Of a stretch of DNA of 64,000 nt, positions 6,349 to 37,372 are shown in pieces. A model generated the notes under the pieces. It saw only the letters and a list, made by a program, of their open reading frames with translations, was not told the origin of the DNA and searched no databases. The position numbers and the translations under genes were made by a program. This stretch comes from Candidatus Uhrbacteria bacterium (GTDB lineage Bacteria; Patescibacteriota; Patescibacteriia; UBA9934; GWF2-40-263). Location of the stretch: positions 222,234-286,233 of the forward strand of contig JAHFIQ010000001.1 of NCBI GenBank assembly GCA_023246355.1, written 5' to 3'. Positions within the stretch are counted from its first letter, which is position 1. Every line of letters starts with the position of its first letter.

Positions 6349-6373
6349 ACTGTAGAAAAATCGAATGGTTATC

Positions 6374-6405
6374 AAAGCCGGAGTTCGTACTCCGGCTTTA
6401 TGTTT
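6374..6405 (+). terminator. rho-independent terminator
   Basis: Hairpin AAGCCGGAGTtcgtACTCCGGCTT followed by TATGTTT. Confidence 0.6.
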
Positions 6406-6422
6406 GCTAGAATGATTGCACT

Positions 6423-7322
6423 ATGCCGAATTTGACTATGGGTCCCAAGGTTCGAAAACCTTTGCATCTGCATGACAAAAAACTCAAGCAACTAGAGGAA
6501 CGTGCACAGATGATCCGCGAGGACGTGATCGACATGCTGGTGCAAGCTGGTTCTGGACACTCGGCTGGACCTCTTGGGATGGCGGACATCTTCACCGCCC
6601 TCTATTTTCACGTCCTGGTTCATGACCCCAAACGCCCTGACTGGAAAGACCGCGATCGTCTAATCCTGAGTAACGGCCACATCTGTCCCATCCGCTACGC
6701 CACCATGGCGCATGCTGGCTACTTCCCAAAAAAACTGTTGATGACCCTGCGCAAGCTCGGCTCACCGTTGCAAGGACATCCTGAACGAGAAAAACTTCCG
6801 GGGGTTGAGACTACCTCTGGTCCACTTGGTTCAGGATCATCACAAGCCGCAGGACTTGCCTACACCGCTCTCTTGGATCGATCCCCATGGCGAGTGTACT
6901 GCGTGATGAGCGACGGAGAATTGGCTGCCGGACAAACCTGGGAAGCCATGCTGTTTGCTAGCCGCAACAAACTCTACAACTGCACATTCGTGATCGATCG
7001 CAACAACATCCAAATCGATGGCACGACCGAGGAGATCATGCCGCTTGAACCCTTGGCCGCAAAGTTCGAAGCGTTCAATCTCAACGTCGAGCACTGCGCA
7101 GGAAACTCGATTCGAGATTTTGTCACAGCGATTGAGCGTGCGCACTCTGTCAGTGAAAAACCCACCGTGATCATCGCAGACACGATCCCCGGCTACGGCG
7201 TTGAGTTCATGGAGCATGACTTTCTCTGGCACGGAAAACCGCCATCCCCTGGAGAAGAGGCCCACCTGGCCATCGAACAACTCAGAACACTCTCAGGAAA
7301 AATAATAAGTGAGCATCAATAA
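6423..7322 (+). CDS. tkt: transketolase, N-terminal subunit (split tkt)
   Basis: GSGHSAGPLGMADI thiamine-diphosphate-binding region; 299 aa matches the N-terminal half only. Confidence 0.85.
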   Translation: MPNLTMGPKVRKPLHLHDKKLKQLEERAQMIREDVIDMLVQAGSGHSAGPLGMADIFTALYFHVLVHDPKRPDWKDRDRLILSNGHICPIRYATMAHAGYFPKKLLMTLRKLGSPLQGHPEREKLPGVETTSGPLGSGSSQAAGLAYTALLDRSPWRVYCVMSDGELAAGQTWEAMLFASRNKLYNCTFVIDRNNIQIDGTTEEIMPLEPLAAKFEAFNLNVEHCAGNSIRDFVTAIERAHSVSEKPTVIIADTIPGYGVEFMEHDFLWHGKPPSPGEEAHLAIEQLRTLSGKIISEHQ

Positions 7323-8256
7323 ATCTATGACCATTCAAAAAGCTCTACCCTGGATCACACGCGGCTTTGCCATCGTTGGGATCGTCGCTCTTATCTGGTG
7401 GGTCGCTCAATATTTCACCGGCGTTCAACCTGTCTTTACGACATCTTCTGGAGATTACTACGAACAGACCATGATCGGGTCGTCTGCATCTTTTGCAGGT
7501 GACTACGGTGAAAAAGCGATCATGCCAGGAGAAGAACTTTTGTACGACTCAGCCCTTGCCGCTGAGATCGATCAGAAGATCATCAAGACAGGCGACCTGT
7601 CGTTGATTGTTCTGGACGTGGAAAAAAGTGCCGATGTCGTGAAGGCTCTTGCGTCAGAAAAAAACGGCTATGTTCAGTCATCATCCGTATCTGAACACGA
7701 AGACGGAACACTTTCAGGCTACGTGATCATCCGTGTCCCAGCCGATCAATTTGATACAAGCGTTGAAGCGTTGAAAGCTGAGGCGCTCGTTGTCGAAGAA
7801 GAATTTGTTTCCACGCAAGACGTAACCGAGCAGTACATCGACCTTGCCGCACGTCTGAAAAATGCTCAAGTACAAGAAACGCGCTACGTGGAAATCTTGG
7901 ACGTCGCCAACACGGTGGAAGAAATTTTGCAGATTGAAAATGCGCTTGCAAACGTCCGCGGCACCATCGAATCGCTCACTGGACAAATTCAATATCTCGA
8001 CTCACAAACAAACTTCTCCACGATCACAGTGAATCTCGATGAGGAACCGGTGATCACCGTGGGCGGAAAAGAGTTTCGCCCAGGCACCACTGTGAAACTT
8101 GCTGCCCAGGCCGTCGTGCGTTTGGCTCAATGGCTCGTTGAGGCCATCATCTGGCTCGTCATCGTCGGCATTGGGATTGGTGTGCCACTGCTTATTCTTG
8201 GATGGATTCTTGTGGTAAAAATTGGAAAGAAATTGATCAATCGATTCAGGAAATAA
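7309..8256 (+). CDS. DUF4349-like membrane-anchored protein
   Basis: N-terminal TM, central coiled-coil region, C-terminal TM; resembles DUF4349 architecture. Confidence 0.5.
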   Translation: MSINKSMTIQKALPWITRGFAIVGIVALIWWVAQYFTGVQPVFTTSSGDYYEQTMIGSSASFAGDYGEKAIMPGEELLYDSALAAEIDQKIIKTGDLSLIVLDVEKSADVVKALASEKNGYVQSSSVSEHEDGTLSGYVIIRVPADQFDTSVEALKAEALVVEEEFVSTQDVTEQYIDLAARLKNAQVQETRYVEILDVANTVEEILQIENALANVRGTIESLTGQIQYLDSQTNFSTITVNLDEEPVITVGGKEFRPGTTVKLAAQAVVRLAQWLVEAIIWLVIVGIGIGVPLLILGWILVVKIGKKLINRFRK

Positions 8257-8286
8257 GTATGGCCAAAGCACGATCTGCAACCGGCA

Positions 8287-9333
8287 TCAACCGTTCTTGA
8301 ACTTCATACGTTTTACCAAATTGAGTAGTCGCCTCTGATTCCTAAATTCCTGACCATGGTCGAAAGCCGACAAACAGGACTGAATTGTCTCACTGAAATT
8401 TTCCTCTAGGATGCCCGTATCCTCGTATTGCGCTACTAAATTCTCAACCCGTCCGAAAAGTCGTTTTCGCGTTGTTCTCCTCATTGTTCGTACCGTTGGT
8501 CTCAACACCCAACCAAGAAAGTCGACACCTTGTTGGTATGTCCGAATGGAAACCTTGTACGGATGAAGGCGCAAAAGTAGACGTCGTGAGAGATACGATT
8601 CAATTTGCAGAAGGGCTGATTCCAAAAACTGACGACTCTCGTGAAGGAGAATAAAATCATCACAAAACCGAATGTACCACCGTATCCTCAGGTGTTCCTT
8701 CACCCAATGGTCGAACGCATTGAGGTAGACGTTGGCAAAAAGTTGGCTGGTGACATTCCCAAGTGGGAGTCCGCACGATACCCCCTTGACAGACAAGTGG
8801 CTTGCTACGACTTGGCCTATAAGCCGCAACAATGGTTCATTGGTGACACGCCGTGCAAGCATCCCCATAAGCACATCGTGCTGTATCGAATCGAAAAATT
8901 TGGAGATGTCGCACTTGAGCGCATAAATGCGACGCGAGTCGTTACAGGATCCTCGTCTCAAAAAATCTTCAAGTCGGTCAATCGCCGCATGCGTCCCTTT
9001 TCCCTTACGCGAAGCAAACGAATCGAAAATGAAGGATGACTCGAAAGCCGGTTCCAAGACGTTCACAAGCGCCTGATGTACAACCCTGTCACGAACGCTT
9101 GCTTTGCTGATGTACCGACGTTTCGGATCATGAATATAAAATTGCTCATACCCACCGTGGAGATAGGATCCATTCTCAAGGTCGTGTACCAGATCAAACA
9201 ATTCATCCTCAAGCCTCATGGAAAATTGAAGCACATCTTGCTTGGCCATCTTTCCACAACTGAATACTTCCCAGGCATCAAACAAATTTTCTAACGAAAT
9301 AACTTCTTGTAGTGATCCGTTCCTATGAGTCAC
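8287..9333 (-). CDS. DGR reverse transcriptase
   Basis: 348 aa; LPLGNVTSQLFANVYLNAFD is the DGR-specific SQ variant of RT motif 4, and FCDD stands in for YxDD. Confidence 0.85.
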   Translation of the reverse strand: MTHRNGSLQEVISLENLFDAWEVFSCGKMAKQDVLQFSMRLEDELFDLVHDLENGSYLHGGYEQFYIHDPKRRYISKASVRDRVVHQALVNVLEPAFESSFIFDSFASRKGKGTHAAIDRLEDFLRRGSCNDSRRIYALKCDISKFFDSIQHDVLMGMLARRVTNEPLLRLIGQVVASHLSVKGVSCGLPLGNVTSQLFANVYLNAFDHWVKEHLRIRWYIRFCDDFILLHESRQFLESALLQIESYLSRRLLLRLHPYKVSIRTYQQGVDFLGWVLRPTVRTMRRTTRKRLFGRVENLVAQYEDTGILEENFSETIQSCLSAFDHGQEFRNQRRLLNLVKRMKFKNG

Positions 9334-9361
9334 CCCCCCCCCGACGGAGTTTGATCGATGG

Positions 9362-9736
9362 TTGACTGGATTCTCCGGTGAAGAATTCGGATTGGTTCAT
9401 AAATTGTATGAATGGTACAAGCTCCTGCACACCGATGTGATTAGGTTCCCCAAAACGGAACGATACACGATTGGTGAAGTGTTGAAGATGCGGACACTTC
9501 AGCTCATCGAAGGAATCTGGGAGGCGAACTCCCTACCACTCCCAGAACGCCTTGCCTTACTCGACCGACTACAACGATCACTCGACCTTATAAAAATCCT
9601 CATTCGCCTCACGTACGATCTAGGAATCTACAAACGTGATGGTTACATCTATCGGGAAAACCGACTCATGGAAATCGGTCGCATGCTCGGAAGTTGGCGA
9701 AAGAAGACACGAGGCCGCTTGGGTCTCGTGTCTTAA
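9362..9736 (+). CDS. avd: Avd-like accessory variability determinant (four-helix-bundle, TIGR02436-like)
   Basis: 124 aa, basic; LYEWYKLL, FPKTERYTIG and a C-terminal EIGRMLGSWRKK resemble Avd proteins. TTG start. It lies on the strand opposite to the RT and TR. Confidence 0.6.
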   Translation: MTGFSGEEFGLVHKLYEWYKLLHTDVIRFPKTERYTIGEVLKMRTLQLIEGIWEANSLPLPERLALLDRLQRSLDLIKILIRLTYDLGIYKRDGYIYRENRLMEIGRMLGSWRKKTRGRLGLVS

Positions 9737-9746
9737 CAGTTAACGG

Positions 9747-9867
9747 CTTCCACGGCACGGCCACCTTCATTGTCGTACGGGATCGAGAGATTGTCAGCGT
9801 CGTTCCTGTTGACCCTCACCTCGCCGTCGTTGTCGTTGGCGTTGAGAGCACCCTGGCCGAAGCGCGT
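9747..9867 (-). repeat. DGR template repeat (TR)
   Basis: 121-bp match to the VR. On the coding (minus) strand every one of the 18 differences is an A in TR (AAC codons N-A-N-D-N-D..N-R-N..). The 3' end carries the IMH*-like GGTGGCCGTGCCGTGGAAG. Confidence 0.85.
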
Positions 9868-10145
9868 TGCGCCGCTTCCTTCCTTACTCACCAGAGGGAA
9901 CCCATGGGTTGCCTCCTGAATTCCGGGATCCGGAAATGTATTCGGACGGACAGACTGTTTGGCGATCCGCCATAAAAGCGGCACGAAGTGGTTCAACTGT
10001 TTACTCACCGTTACCGACTTCTCCGATTATCATGAACCGGATGCTCGTGGGTAACAGCAGGATGTTGGTAACCAACAAGTTCTCGCTTATTGGTCTACAA
10101 ACCTTCACCAGCAGTATTGTAACAAGATCCAAAACAAAATTAATA

Positions 10146-10182
10146 GCCCTGCTCCGCTACCGCTTGGTAGCAAGAGCAGGGC
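10146..10182 (-). promoter_or_regulatory. GC-rich nested hairpin immediately 3' of the VR (DGR target-recognition hairpin and/or terminator)
   Basis: GCCCTGCTC-tt-GCTACC-aagc-GGTAGC-g-GAGCAGGGC, followed by a T-rich run. Confidence 0.6.
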
Positions 10183-10195
10183 AGGGGGTCAAGGT

Positions 10196-10942
10196 TCAAG
10201 CAGCATTCTTGACCACTTCCACGGCACGGCCACCCTCATTGCCGAACGGGATCGAGAGAGAGGCAGCGTCGCACCTGAAGACCCTCACCACGCCGCCGAG
10301 GTCGCAGGCGTCGAGAGCACCCCGGCCGAAGCGCGTGCGCAGCCAGCACCAGGTGCTGACGTCGATGTGCTCGCCGATGAGGTCGCGGTGCGTCCAGTAG
10401 ACGATCGCGTATTCCTCCAGCGAGAGGAGCTTCACCGCCGCGGTGAGGTCATTCCAGCTCGTATTGATCCGGGGGCACCTGGGAGCGATCTCCACAGTGA
10501 ACCAGTAACCAGCCTGGGCGATCTCCCAGCCGATCTTGGCACGGTCGTCGGCGTTCGCGACAGTCCAGTGATTGGACTGACCGTGCGCAATCATCCACCC
10601 TTCATAGGTCATCTCGACCGTCGACGGGCGGTAGAACAGCTCGCGACCTTCGCGGCGCCAGCGCTTGAGGGTCGTGTTGGAGACGCCGGGCCTGGGCACC
10701 GCGATCGTGAACCCGCGGGCGCGGAAGTTCGCCTCGATGGCGACACGGCGCTCCTCGGCCAGGTCGACCTTGGGCCTGTGGTCCTTCTCGCCGGCCTTTG
10801 CGCGAACTTCGGCCTCGCTGGTGCCGTCGATGATCGCCTGCAGGACAGTACGAGCAATCGCGGCCTTGGCCGGATCGGCGAGGGCGTGGCGTTGTGCTTC
10901 GTCAAACTGGCGCCGGAGCGCCAACTCAATCATGGCTTCCAT
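10196..10942 (-). CDS. DGR target protein (high GC; C-terminal C-type-lectin/FGE-like variable domain)
   Basis: VR sits at the C-terminus. Start chosen at MEAMIE, which has an AAGGAAAG SD; the ORF track extends to 11035. Confidence 0.7.
   Translation of the reverse strand: MEAMIELALRRQFDEAQRHALADPAKAAIARTVLQAIIDGTSEAEVRAKAGEKDHRPKVDLAEERRVAIEANFRARGFTIAVPRPGVSNTTLKRWRREGRELFYRPSTVEMTYEGWMIAHGQSNHWTVANADDRAKIGWEIAQAGYWFTVEIAPRCPRINTSWNDLTAAVKLLSLEEYAIVYWTHRDLIGEHIDVSTWCWLRTRFGRGALDACDLGGVVRVFRCDAASLSIPFGNEGGRAVEVVKNAA
10216..10336 (-). repeat. DGR variable repeat (VR) at the 3' end of the target gene
   Basis: Encodes TRFGRGALDACDLGGVVRVFRCDAASLSIPFGNEGGRAVE against the TR-encoded TRFGQGALNANDNDGEVRVNRNDADNLSIPYDNEGGRAVE. 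Confidence 0.85.
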
Positions 10943-11035
10943 GGTCTTTCCTTTGCTTGTGCCCATGTCGCGCCGGAGCGCAGAGGCACGTTTTGCCCCA
11001 AATTCCAGGCCGAACGCCCAGGTTGGAACCAACAA

Positions 11036-11064
11036 ACAATACAGGAAAATTCGGTTTTTGTCAA
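11036..11064 (-). promoter_or_regulatory. sigma70-like promoter of the DGR target gene
   Basis: Minus strand TTGACA(11059..11064)-17nt-TATTGT(11036..11041). Confidence 0.55.
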
Positions 11065-11074
11065 GCGATTTGGT

Positions 11075-11641
11075 ATGATTCTGCTACCTGTGAAAAAAGA
11101 GGAACAAAACAACGCATACATCGACGCGGCGAACCTGCATCATGGTGTTCAGTCCCAAGGTTGGATTCTTGACTATCGTCGTTTCCGCATCTGGTTAAAA
11201 GAAAAGCATGGGGTAAAAAATGCCTATCTATTTCTTGGGTTGATTCCAAAGCACCATGCCCTGTATCAATCATTACAAGAGGCAGGATTCATCCTGATCT
11301 TTAAGGAAGTTATCTTTGACCGTGATGGTAAGCCTAAGGGTAATTGCGATGCGGATCTTGTCTTGCAGGTCACTGTGGACTTCTTTCATAAAACGTTCCA
11401 AAAAGCAGTCATCGTCACGAGCGATGGAGATTACGCTGGACTCGTAAAAATGCTGCACGCTCATCATGCACTGGAAATGATCGTCTCTCCAGCACAAGAA
11501 AAAAAGTGTTCAATTTTATTGAAACGATCGAATGCTCCCATGACTTATCTTGGACAGTCCCGTATGCGTCCACTTCTAGAGCGCCGAAAAGAAAAAGCCC
11601 CCGATGCGGACGGAACCGCACAGGGGTCTTCTTCGTGGTGA
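11075..11641 (+). CDS. NYN/LabA-like (PIN-like) domain protein
   Basis: AYIDAANLHHG....DADLVLQVTVD...AVIVTSDGDYAGLV pattern of DUF88/NYN. The track ORF 10367..11641 is inflated by the antisense frame of the target gene. Confidence 0.55.
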   Translation: MILLPVKKEEQNNAYIDAANLHHGVQSQGWILDYRRFRIWLKEKHGVKNAYLFLGLIPKHHALYQSLQEAGFILIFKEVIFDRDGKPKGNCDADLVLQVTVDFFHKTFQKAVIVTSDGDYAGLVKMLHAHHALEMIVSPAQEKKCSILLKRSNAPMTYLGQSRMRPLLERRKEKAPDADGTAQGSSSW

Positions 11642-11689
11642 TACAGAAACAATACAACCTCTGTGTATATAAGTCAAGAAAAAATACTA

Positions 11690-12816
11690 TGAGATCGAAA
11701 ACCCAATCAGGCATCAACCGCGAGGCGTGGCTTGCCCGCGATCTGTTTGATGAAAAAAAGCTTAGGCAGACTCCCACCCGCAACGGCTTTGGCGAGGGTT
11801 TGGTTGAAGCTGGACGAGTCAACAAAAATATCGTTGTCCTGTGTGCAGACCTCACCGAATCCACACGCGTTCTTCCCTTCAAGGAAGCCTATCCAGATCG
11901 TTTCGTTCAACTCGGGGTGAGTGAACAATCCATGCCTTCGATCGCGGCCGGCATGGCCATGGCTGGGAAAATTCCGTTCATTGCCAGCTATGCGTGCTTT
12001 TCTCCAGGTCGCAACTGGGAACAAATTCGCACCACGGTCGCACTCAACAACATGAACGTCAAAATTGCCGGCGCGCATGCGGGCGTCTCGGTCGGTCCCG
12101 ACGGCGCCACCCATCAGATGATCGAGGACCTTGCCATCATGCGAGTGCTGCCAAATATGAACGTCGTCGTCCCATGCGATACGATCGAAACACGAAAAGC
12201 AACAGAGACGATCGCGAAACTTGTCGGGCCATGCTATTTACGTTTTGCTCGAGAAAAATCGCCGGTGTTCACCACGATAAAGACGCCATTCAAAATTGGG
12301 CGTGCGGAAACATATCGATTCGGTCAGGACGTCACGATCATTGGAGCGGGGCCTCTTTTGTACGAAGCCCTCTTGGCAGCCGAAAGACTCTCCAAAGACT
12401 TTGGGATCGAATGCCGTGTTGTGAACATGCATACGATCAAGCCCTTGGATGTAAAGACGATCGTGAAGGCTGCGAAAGAAACTGGCGCGATTGTCACGGT
12501 TGAAGAAGCTCAGGCTGCTGGTGGACTTGCTGGCGCTGTGGCTGAAACCATTTCTCTGACAACACCTGTGCCCATGGAACGCATTGGTGTGCAAGATCGT
12601 TTTGGTGAATCTGGTACACCGCGCGAAGTCCAAGAAGGACTTGGCCTTACGGCCGAATTCATCGCTCTTGCCGTTGATCGTGTGCTTCGGCGCAAACATG
12701 GACAGCGTGTGCCGGATGTTCCCGCTCATGTCCTAGCCGCCCAAGAAAAACTCGTCAAAATGCAAAAGGCTGTTATGGACGCGGCGCTCAAAAAAGTCCC
12801 GAGGAAGTGGAAATAA
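11690..12816 (+). CDS. tkt: transketolase, C-terminal subunit (split tkt)
   Basis: Pyrimidine-binding and C-terminal domains (GVSEQSMPSIAAGMA, HAGVSVGPDGATHQ). The N-terminal 60 aa of the track ORF are a spurious extension. Confidence 0.85.
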
Positions 12817-12821
12817 CAAAA

Positions 12822-12848
12822 AAGAGCCTCCCCGGCTCTTTTTTGTTA
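12822..12848 (+). terminator. rho-independent terminator
   Basis: AGAGCC-tccc-CGGCTCT followed by TTTTTTGTT. Confidence 0.6.
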
Positions 12849-12875
12849 TACTGTAGTTGGCTTGAAGATCTTGGG

Positions 12876-36149: not shown

Positions 36150-36164
36150 ACGGCTAATGAGTAG

Positions 36165-36192
36165 AGCCCGGTTGAAGGCCTAACCGGGCTTC
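36165..36192 (+). terminator. terminator hairpin (AGCCCGGTT-gaaggcct-AACCGGGCT)
   Basis: 9-bp GC-rich stem followed by a pyrimidine-rich tail; an extended -10 TGGTATAAT for the next gene follows at about 36203. Confidence 0.45.
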
Positions 36193-36229
36193 TTCCTCCC
36201 ATGGTATAATCACACAAACGAAACAACCT

Positions 36230-37240: not shown

Positions 37241-37315
37241 GCGGGTATAGCTCAGTGGTAGAGCGTCTCCTTGCCAAGGAGAAGGTCGCGGGTTCGAACC
37301 CCGTTGCCCGCTCCA
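37241..37315 (+). tRNA. tRNA-Gly (anticodon GCC)
   Basis: Anticodon loop cTTGCCAa; CCA encoded. Confidence 0.85.
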
Positions 37316-37372
37316 CAATGCACCTTAGACTGTCTAGGGTGTTTTGTTTTAGGCTGCTATACTAAAACGTAC

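Follow-up and report, generated by a model that had tools for sequence, protein, structure and literature searches.

Introduction

The hairpins of phage DGRs lie 4-34 bp downstream of VR/IMH (Guo et al., 2011, PMC3240598). The loop of the BPP-1 hairpin is critical in both size and sequence, with the consensus GRNA; its stem is 7-10 bp, and activity is gradually lost with longer stems (PMC3240598). These phage DGR hairpin criteria were reused in myDGR (PMC6602519). The BPP-1 stem-loop is important for homing in Bordetella and in E. coli. Later surveys found a GC inverted repeat in only 34% of DGRs, and some of these look like terminators. A 2026 reconstitution study found that the stem-loop helps without being strictly required, and proposed that it holds the target open for cDNA annealing.

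The DGR hairpins of Nanoarchaeota (Paul et al., 2015, PMC4372165) are, like the hairpin analysed here, a clade-specific VR-proximal variant in uncultivated small-genome organisms. They have a strictly conserved GRA triloop and lie within coding sequence, whereas the present hairpin has a variable loop, is intergenic and carries a terminator tail. Group IIC introns (discussed in PMC3240598) offer a second likeness, in that a retroelement related to DGR RTs acts beside a terminator-like hairpin; unlike in that system, no intron or insertion is involved at the present hairpin. By analogy with these introns, a single hairpin could both end transcription and act as the target of a retroelement.

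In CPR DGRs the B3 architecture, TR-(avd)-RT, accounts for 90% of cases (PMC5758913). The CPR-type B3 cassette (Wu et al., 2018, PMC5758913) has the order target-VR, TR, opposite-strand avd and RT. The cassette described below has this same order, and nothing in it differs from the published type.

A CPR-type DGR cassette

The window is the whole stretch of 64,000 nucleotides that was analysed. It contains the following DGR features.

10196..11035, minus strand: DGR target ORF, 279 aa as the longest ORF, with VR at its end
10209..10336, minus strand: VR, at the 3' end of the target gene
10234..10216, minus strand: GC-rich block of VR identical to TR, GGTGGCCGTGCCGTGGAAG
10215..10209, minus strand: IMH-like divergent stretch directly after the GC-rich block
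9740..9867, minus strand: TR, with adenine-specific mismatches against VR
9362..9736, plus strand: avd (accessory variability determinant), match to bAvd PF22296 (E = 4.8e-11)
8287..9333, minus strand: DGR reverse transcriptase, match to RVT_1 (E = 3.8e-24)

TR (9867..9740) and VR (10336..10209) are 84% identical. Of the 21 mismatches, ~86% fall at TR adenines, and the copy at 9740-9867 is therefore the TR; AAC codons are in frame in the pair. The locus thus has the RT, the Avd and the adenine-specific TR/VR mismatches at the 3' end of a target ORF by which DGRs are recognized. The original prediction had put the hairpin downstream of the VR in a DGR target, and the mismatches together with the RVT_1 and bAvd matches confirmed that this setting is real. 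In this TR-(avd)-RT (B3) architecture, avd lies between TR and RT on the opposite strand.

Homologues of the target are ~248 aa long, which suggests a true start near 10942. The target protein gave no Pfam match and no PDB sequence match, and a search for viral relatives of it found none. The closest RTs are those of Candidatus Uhrbacteria MAGs (78-79% identity). Five contigs with an identical RT were 100% identical in VR, hairpin and TR, and are uninformative on population variation of the VR.

Three further observations concern the surroundings of the cassette. At 9333..9342 (minus strand) a run of ten G, eleven in the related locus L001, takes up most of the 28 nt that separate the divergent starts of avd and RT; it may be prone to slippage or have a regulatory function. 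A 424-aa ORF (10367..11641, plus strand) runs antisense through the GC-rich target gene and is annotated in the public contigs L010 and L012. Its NYN domain match is limited to the C-terminal part (~11117-11515), and the true NYN gene probably starts near 11050-11100, divergent from the target gene. Target and DGR cassette together (6423..12816) are located between two halves of a split transketolase, beside a DUF4349 gene.

Structure and stability of the VR-side hairpin

The minus strand at 10182..10146 reads GCCCTGCTC-tt-GCTACC-aagc-GGTAGC-g-GAGCAGGGC, an exact match to the nested stem of 9 + 6 bp with a 4-nt loop that had been predicted on this strand. The parts of the hairpin and the tail behind it are as follows.

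10182..10174 with 10154..10146, minus strand: outer stem, 9 bp, 7 GC
Between outer and inner stems, minus strand: internal loop, tt opposite g (2/1 nt)
10171..10166 with 10161..10156, minus strand: inner stem, 6 bp, 4 GC
10165..10162, minus strand: terminal loop AAGC (antisense GCTT)
10131..10145, minus strand: T-rich tail TATTAATTTTGTTTT, proposed U-tract of an intrinsic terminator

The hairpin begins 13 nt past the target stop TGA (10198..10196) and has a stem of 15 bp in all (~ -31 kcal/mol). Folded as RNA in an 81-nt context, it gave an MFE of -32.7 kcal/mol (z = -4.95), and 0/200 dinucleotide shuffles were equally stable. The DNA fold of the same context gave -16.9 kcal/mol (z = -5.12; 0/200 shuffles equally stable). 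When both strands of the 64-kb window were ranked for stability, the hairpin was exceeded by one structure only, at ~51.5 kb. Its arms are single-copy within the window, which ruled out a dispersed repeat (REP/MITE).

The T-rich tail follows right after the hairpin (UAUUAAUUUUGUUUU / TATTAATTTTGTTTTGG), with 7 T in the first 10 nt. It is strand-specific: 7 T of 10 on the minus side (TATTAATTTT) against 1 T of 10 on the plus side (AGGGGGTCAA). A ready-made terminator scan of the window did not call the hairpin, probably because the scan disallows an internal loop.

Orthologous and non-homologous hairpins in close loci

Close loci were obtained through RT homologues (L093, L095) and through target-protein homologues (L096-L102). 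Orthologous hairpins were compared in seven distinct sequences (window, L001, L096, L098, L099, L100 and L102). On the structure given above, 96.2% of pair cells were kept, with 10 G-U and 4 unpaired cells. One stem pair shifts from A-U to G-U in three sequences and to G-C in one. The loops read AAGC, AACC or GACT and are 4 nt long in all seven. The T-rich tails after the hairpin were TATTTTTTT, TATTTGTTTT or TTTTTAAAA.

Conservation of the stem in homologous DGR loci had been put forward as a check on a recognition role. The pairing was kept in the seven orthologues; the covariation was not significant, with 229-272 of 500 shuffles reaching the values observed for the 7 sequences. The check is also non-discriminating, because a terminator would likewise be expected to keep its stem. 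A recount of the pair table gave 10 G-U cells on the sense strand against 2 would-be antisense wobbles, and this bias fits an RNA hairpin better than a symmetrical two-strand cruciform. The 5' outer arm and the spacer (GCCCTGCTCTTG) are invariant in the seven orthologues, and all of the outer-stem variation is in the 3' arm.

Three of the orthologous loci (L099, L100 and L102) retain the hairpin without an adjacent TR-avd-RT cassette. An 84-nt insertion in L096 and L100 puts the hairpin >100 nt from the VR. It lies directly after the target stop (L096 1143-1226; L100 974-1057), has small hairpins of its own, displaces the array described below and the terminator from the VR, and possibly represents a miniature mobile element. 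In L099 the leader-TR-avd-RT cassette is absent between the target gene and the DUF4349 gene, and in L102 a convergent, unassigned ORF occupies the region past the hairpin. Hairpin and IMH-like end persist in both loci; the cassette is thus a presence/absence polymorphism. A DGR located elsewhere in the genome could still act in trans on such cassette-less loci.

The remaining close loci examined (L093, L095, L097 and L101) have non-homologous hairpins with loops of ~6-32 nt (~32 nt in L093, 16 nt in L095, ~6 nt in L097), each with a T-run after it. In L093, L095 and L097 the stem ends in GGGC, with a T-run behind it (GGGCTTTT...).

Hairpins in distant loci

A metagenome scan with RT alignment yielded 80 loci at 40-53% RT identity. 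TR/VR pairs were located by their adenine-specific mismatches, and the region after each repeat was then folded. The counts of 44 given here refer to loci of TR-(avd)-RT architecture, with the window and L001 included.

A strong VR-side hairpin was found in 37/44 loci, starting 24-92 nt after the VR (median 50). Loops in these 37 were 3-12 nt; ten were 4 nt long, and three of the ten read GAAA. A T-rich tail (at least 5 T of 10) followed the VR-side hairpin in 31/37 loci.

Hairpins adjacent to the TR

The TR-proximal region had been thought to be without an equivalent hairpin. This was wrong: a perfect 10-bp stem lies 5 nt past the TR.

9704..9734, minus strand: TR-side hairpin AAGACACGAG-acccaagcggc-CTCGTGTCTT, -17.1 kcal/mol, z = -2.66

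It sits within the last codons of the antisense avd and is conserved in L001, L007 and L095. TR-adjacent hairpins were found in 37/44 related loci, 0-26 nt past the TR (median 8 nt), and are closer to their repeat than VR-side hairpins (median 50 nt). Their position tracks the TR and not the avd stop, which falls before, within or after the hairpin depending on the locus. Loops were 3-12 nt, with seven 4-nt loops, none of them GRNA, and 24/37 had a T-rich tail (at least 5 T of 10). Since a TR-adjacent hairpin is common to most loci, a hairpin cannot distinguish VR from TR here. The TR-side hairpin could be a terminator or a 3' structure of the TR RNA.

The loops of the two hairpins of the window have a common 8-mer, CCAAGCGG, on the minus strand (VR side 10160..10167, TR side 9715..9722). 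Both loops of L001 read CCAACCGG, with the identical G-to-C change at the VR and TR sites. The pattern is absent in L095 and L097. Matched VR/TR loops were rejected as a general rule, as the longest common substrings were no longer within than between loci (44 loci).

Candidate promoter and structured leader

Two features separate the VR-side hairpin from the TR.

10116..10124, minus strand: extended -10-like element TGTTACAAT, 21 nt past the hairpin, proposed TR RNA start region
9868..10115, minus strand: conserved structured leader of ~250 nt, ahead of the TR and behind the hairpin and candidate promoter

L001 has TGCTACAAT at the position equivalent to TGTTACAAT. The pattern TGnTAnnnT occurred no more than 60 nt after the VR-side hairpin in 22/31 loci, against 5.2% of control segments. 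A hairpin and T-run followed by TGnTAnAAT is also present in intergenic regions elsewhere in the window (6366-6409, 12799-12860, 36153-36205 and 37306-37354), the extended -10-like motif itself being near 6405, 12850, 36200 and 37355.

The leader is ~92% identical to that of L001. A comparison of six sequences predicted 71 pairs in it, and 20 of these show compensatory changes; a covarying structured leader behind the promoter supports a distinct TR transcript. No Rfam family was found in 8200..11800, where the single match was sub-threshold and due to chance. A covariance model of the 3' half of the leader, which says nothing on the wider clade, had matches limited to the close subclade, L007 and, in part, L013.

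A CTTGR array after the VR

Between the stop codon and the hairpin 5' arm, the minus strand carries a series of short units.

10171..10200, minus strand: C(T)TGR array CTTGA-ac-CTTGA-cccCCTG-cCCTG-ctCTTG, from the stop codon into the hairpin 5' arm

This stretch is identical in L001 and L098, and its GCCCTGCTCTTG part is identical in the seven orthologues. In related loci, arrays of 3-6 units (CTTGG, CTTGA, CTTAG or CCTG) lie between the VR/stop and the terminator. Positions in relatives include the following, among others.

L091, 3112-3154: CTTGR-type array
L073, 224-252: CTTGR-type array
L066, 538-593: CTTGR-type array
L080, 3105-3134: CTTGR-type array

In the 70 nt after the repeats of 45 loci, CTTG occurred 97 times after VRs and 12 times after TRs. 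Units of the CTTG type were ~8-fold enriched at VR against TR and ~5-fold over shuffles, with a spacing mode of 7-9 nt. Strict arrays of at least 3 units were found almost only after VRs (11/18 in 1.1 Mb), and some of the remainder sit where an unrecognised VR end is expected. The array is the sole VR-specific cis feature detected, and on this ground we hypothesize that it is a candidate recipient mark. Pairing of the array with the TR transcript (leader, TR, antisense avd) was rejected by RNAduplex comparison with shuffled arrays (mean z = -0.07, 37 loci). A limited literature search found no description of a CTTGR array. No mention of the array, of the TR-adjacent hairpin or of the terminator-promoter-leader layout was found in the DGR literature searched.

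In the cyanobacterial DGR of L002 (Leptolyngbya MAG, 40% RT identity), the pyrimidine-rich CTCTTGCCCTCTGCTGG follows both VRs (ends 4880 and 1968), with the GC hairpin GGCGC-GAA-GCGCC and then a T-run behind it. From this locus, the array-plus-hairpin layout may extend beyond CPR.

Discussion

The VR-side hairpin is probably a Rho-independent terminator of the DGR target gene. As in such terminators, a stable GC-rich stem-loop stands just past the stop codon, the stem runs straight into a U-rich tract that only the coding strand has, and the structure is retained while sequence, loop and exact position drift, with G-U pairs tolerated. The same design is present at other gene ends of the window. 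Termination had been suggested earlier as something the element may also do; as a predicted terminator it was borne out by the stop-adjacent GC stem, the T-tail and the layout in relatives. Across relatives, what is conserved appears to be the terminator, with a variable loop and distance, a T-tail and a predicted promoter right behind.

Several features count against this assignment. The U-tract is interrupted by A's (UAUUAAUUUU), the stem is exceptionally long for this window and exceeds its other terminator-like hairpins in strength, and the 4-nt loop size is constant in all seven orthologues. In addition, conservation of the 5' arm goes beyond what base pairing demands, and it is the 3' arm that varies; pairing alone does not account for this asymmetry. 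At 26 nt, the spacing from the VR falls within that reported for functional DGR hairpins, and the element may therefore have a second role in homing.

Two transcription units are proposed, in which the target mRNA would end at the hairpin and the TR RNA would begin just behind it. Minus-strand transcription of the target would pass through VR and the stop codon, and the nascent RNA would fold into the 15-bp GC-rich stem. Polymerase would be released at the U-rich tract after the stem, which would insulate the target mRNA from the next transcription unit. This second unit would start ~20-30 nt further on, at the extended -10 promoter TGTTACAAT. It would be a separate non-coding RNA composed of the ~250-nt structured leader, the TR and the TR-adjacent 3' hairpin. 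Both the termination and the promoter activity in this scheme are inferred from sequence. Any contribution of the hairpin to retrohoming would be generic, in that a stem-loop near the VR would keep the target open for cDNA annealing, and would not amount to sequence-specific recognition of the Bordetella type. A generic helper role of this kind, open to any stable hairpin near the VR, is conceivable but not likely.

The main alternative is a Bordetella-type recognition hairpin or cruciform, formed by DNA extrusion or a single-strand fold and needed in a loop-dependent manner for cDNA integration at the VR, as the main function of the element or as an equal second one. This had been the leading proposal of the original prediction, and we consider it unlikely. 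The placement suits it well: the hairpin lies 26 nt past the end of TR/VR homology, within the published 4-34 bp, and the claim of a position equivalent to that of the phage DGR hairpin was correct. As in BPP-1 and other phage DGRs (PMC3240598), the element is a GC-rich inverted repeat with a 4-nt loop a short distance 3' of the VR. The BPP-1 stem-loop, as noted above, is important for homing in two hosts. The loop size is constant in the window and its six orthologues; its sequence is AAGC here and AACC or GACT in orthologues, never GRNA. The wider clade also varies in size (3-12 nt; 16 nt in L095, 32 nt in L093), so that relatives' loops span 3-32 nt at offsets of 24 to >100 nt, and a GRNA tetraloop was present in only 3/37 strong VR-side hairpins. 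Neither loop size nor distance is thus conserved in the DGRs related to the window. The arms are GC-rich, but the 15-bp stem, with its outer 9 bp (7 GC) and inner 6 bp (4 GC) around an internal loop, compares with 7-10 bp in BPP-1, and it is followed by a U-tract and a promoter-like element.

The phage hairpin is a feature of the VR alone, absent after the TR (IMH*). Here the TR has its own, closer hairpin (9734..9704), so presence of a hairpin cannot mark the recipient. The VR-side hairpin folds as DNA too (z = -5.1), yet its wobble pairs are biased toward the sense strand. It is also kept without an adjacent cassette, and GC inverted repeats occur in only 34% of DGRs. The loop without GRNA, the TR-side hairpin, the variability across the clade and the persistence without a cassette together argued against the candidate as a Bordetella-type structure, and the terminator reading is preferred.

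A composite VR-side signal was also considered, in which the CTTGR array (10200..10171) would be the constrained element and the 3' arm would merely have evolved to pair with it, array and hairpin together marking the recipient for the retroelement or for an RNA- or DNA-binding factor. We regard this as improbable. It would account for the invariant 5' arm (GCCCTGCTCTTG) and the confinement of outer-stem changes to the 3' arm in the 7 orthologues. The enrichment of CTTG-type units after VRs (~8-fold against TR, ~5-fold against shuffles, at 7-9-nt spacing), the near confinement of arrays of at least 3 units to VR downstream regions (11/18 in 1.1 Mb), and the similar CTCTTGCCCTCTGCTGG ahead of a GC hairpin in the cyanobacterial L002 point the same way. 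Set against these are the degenerate units of the window, which the strict pattern missed, and the RNAduplex result, in which pairing with the TR transcript was no stronger than for shuffled arrays (mean z = -0.07). A 3'-UTR element or a by-product of mutation would explain the array equally well. Generalized to CPR-type TR-(avd)-RT DGRs, the proposal would be that hairpins occur on both donor TR and recipient VR, and that an array of CTTGR units at 7-8 nt, the last of which form the hairpin 5' arm, is the VR-specific element; this wider form is speculative and rather improbable as well.

A chance palindrome or mobile repeat without function, for which nothing specific speaks beyond the ability of GC-rich flanks to yield spurious stems, is effectively refuted by the conservation data, as seven orthologues conserve the hairpin with pairing-preserving changes and most related loci have positional equivalents, by a stability (z ~ -5) that 0/200 shuffles equalled, and by the single copy in the window.

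Taken alone the hairpin is ordinary, a probable terminator behind a DGR target gene at a site from which inverted repeats of DGRs have been described before. The original observation was correct and its interpretation over-specific. Before a GC hairpin behind a VR is called a Bordetella-type element, its loop motif should be examined, as should the TR side and the related loci. The side observations are more promising than the hairpin itself. The comparison yields a testable order for CPR DGRs: target mRNA, terminator, promoter, structured leader, TR and TR-adjacent hairpin. The VR-specific repeat array is a better candidate than the hairpin for recipient marking; if it does act in this way, array and hairpin together would constitute a novel, composite signal by which a large clade of DGRs recognizes its targets. 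This bears on how DGR cDNA finds the VR instead of the TR.
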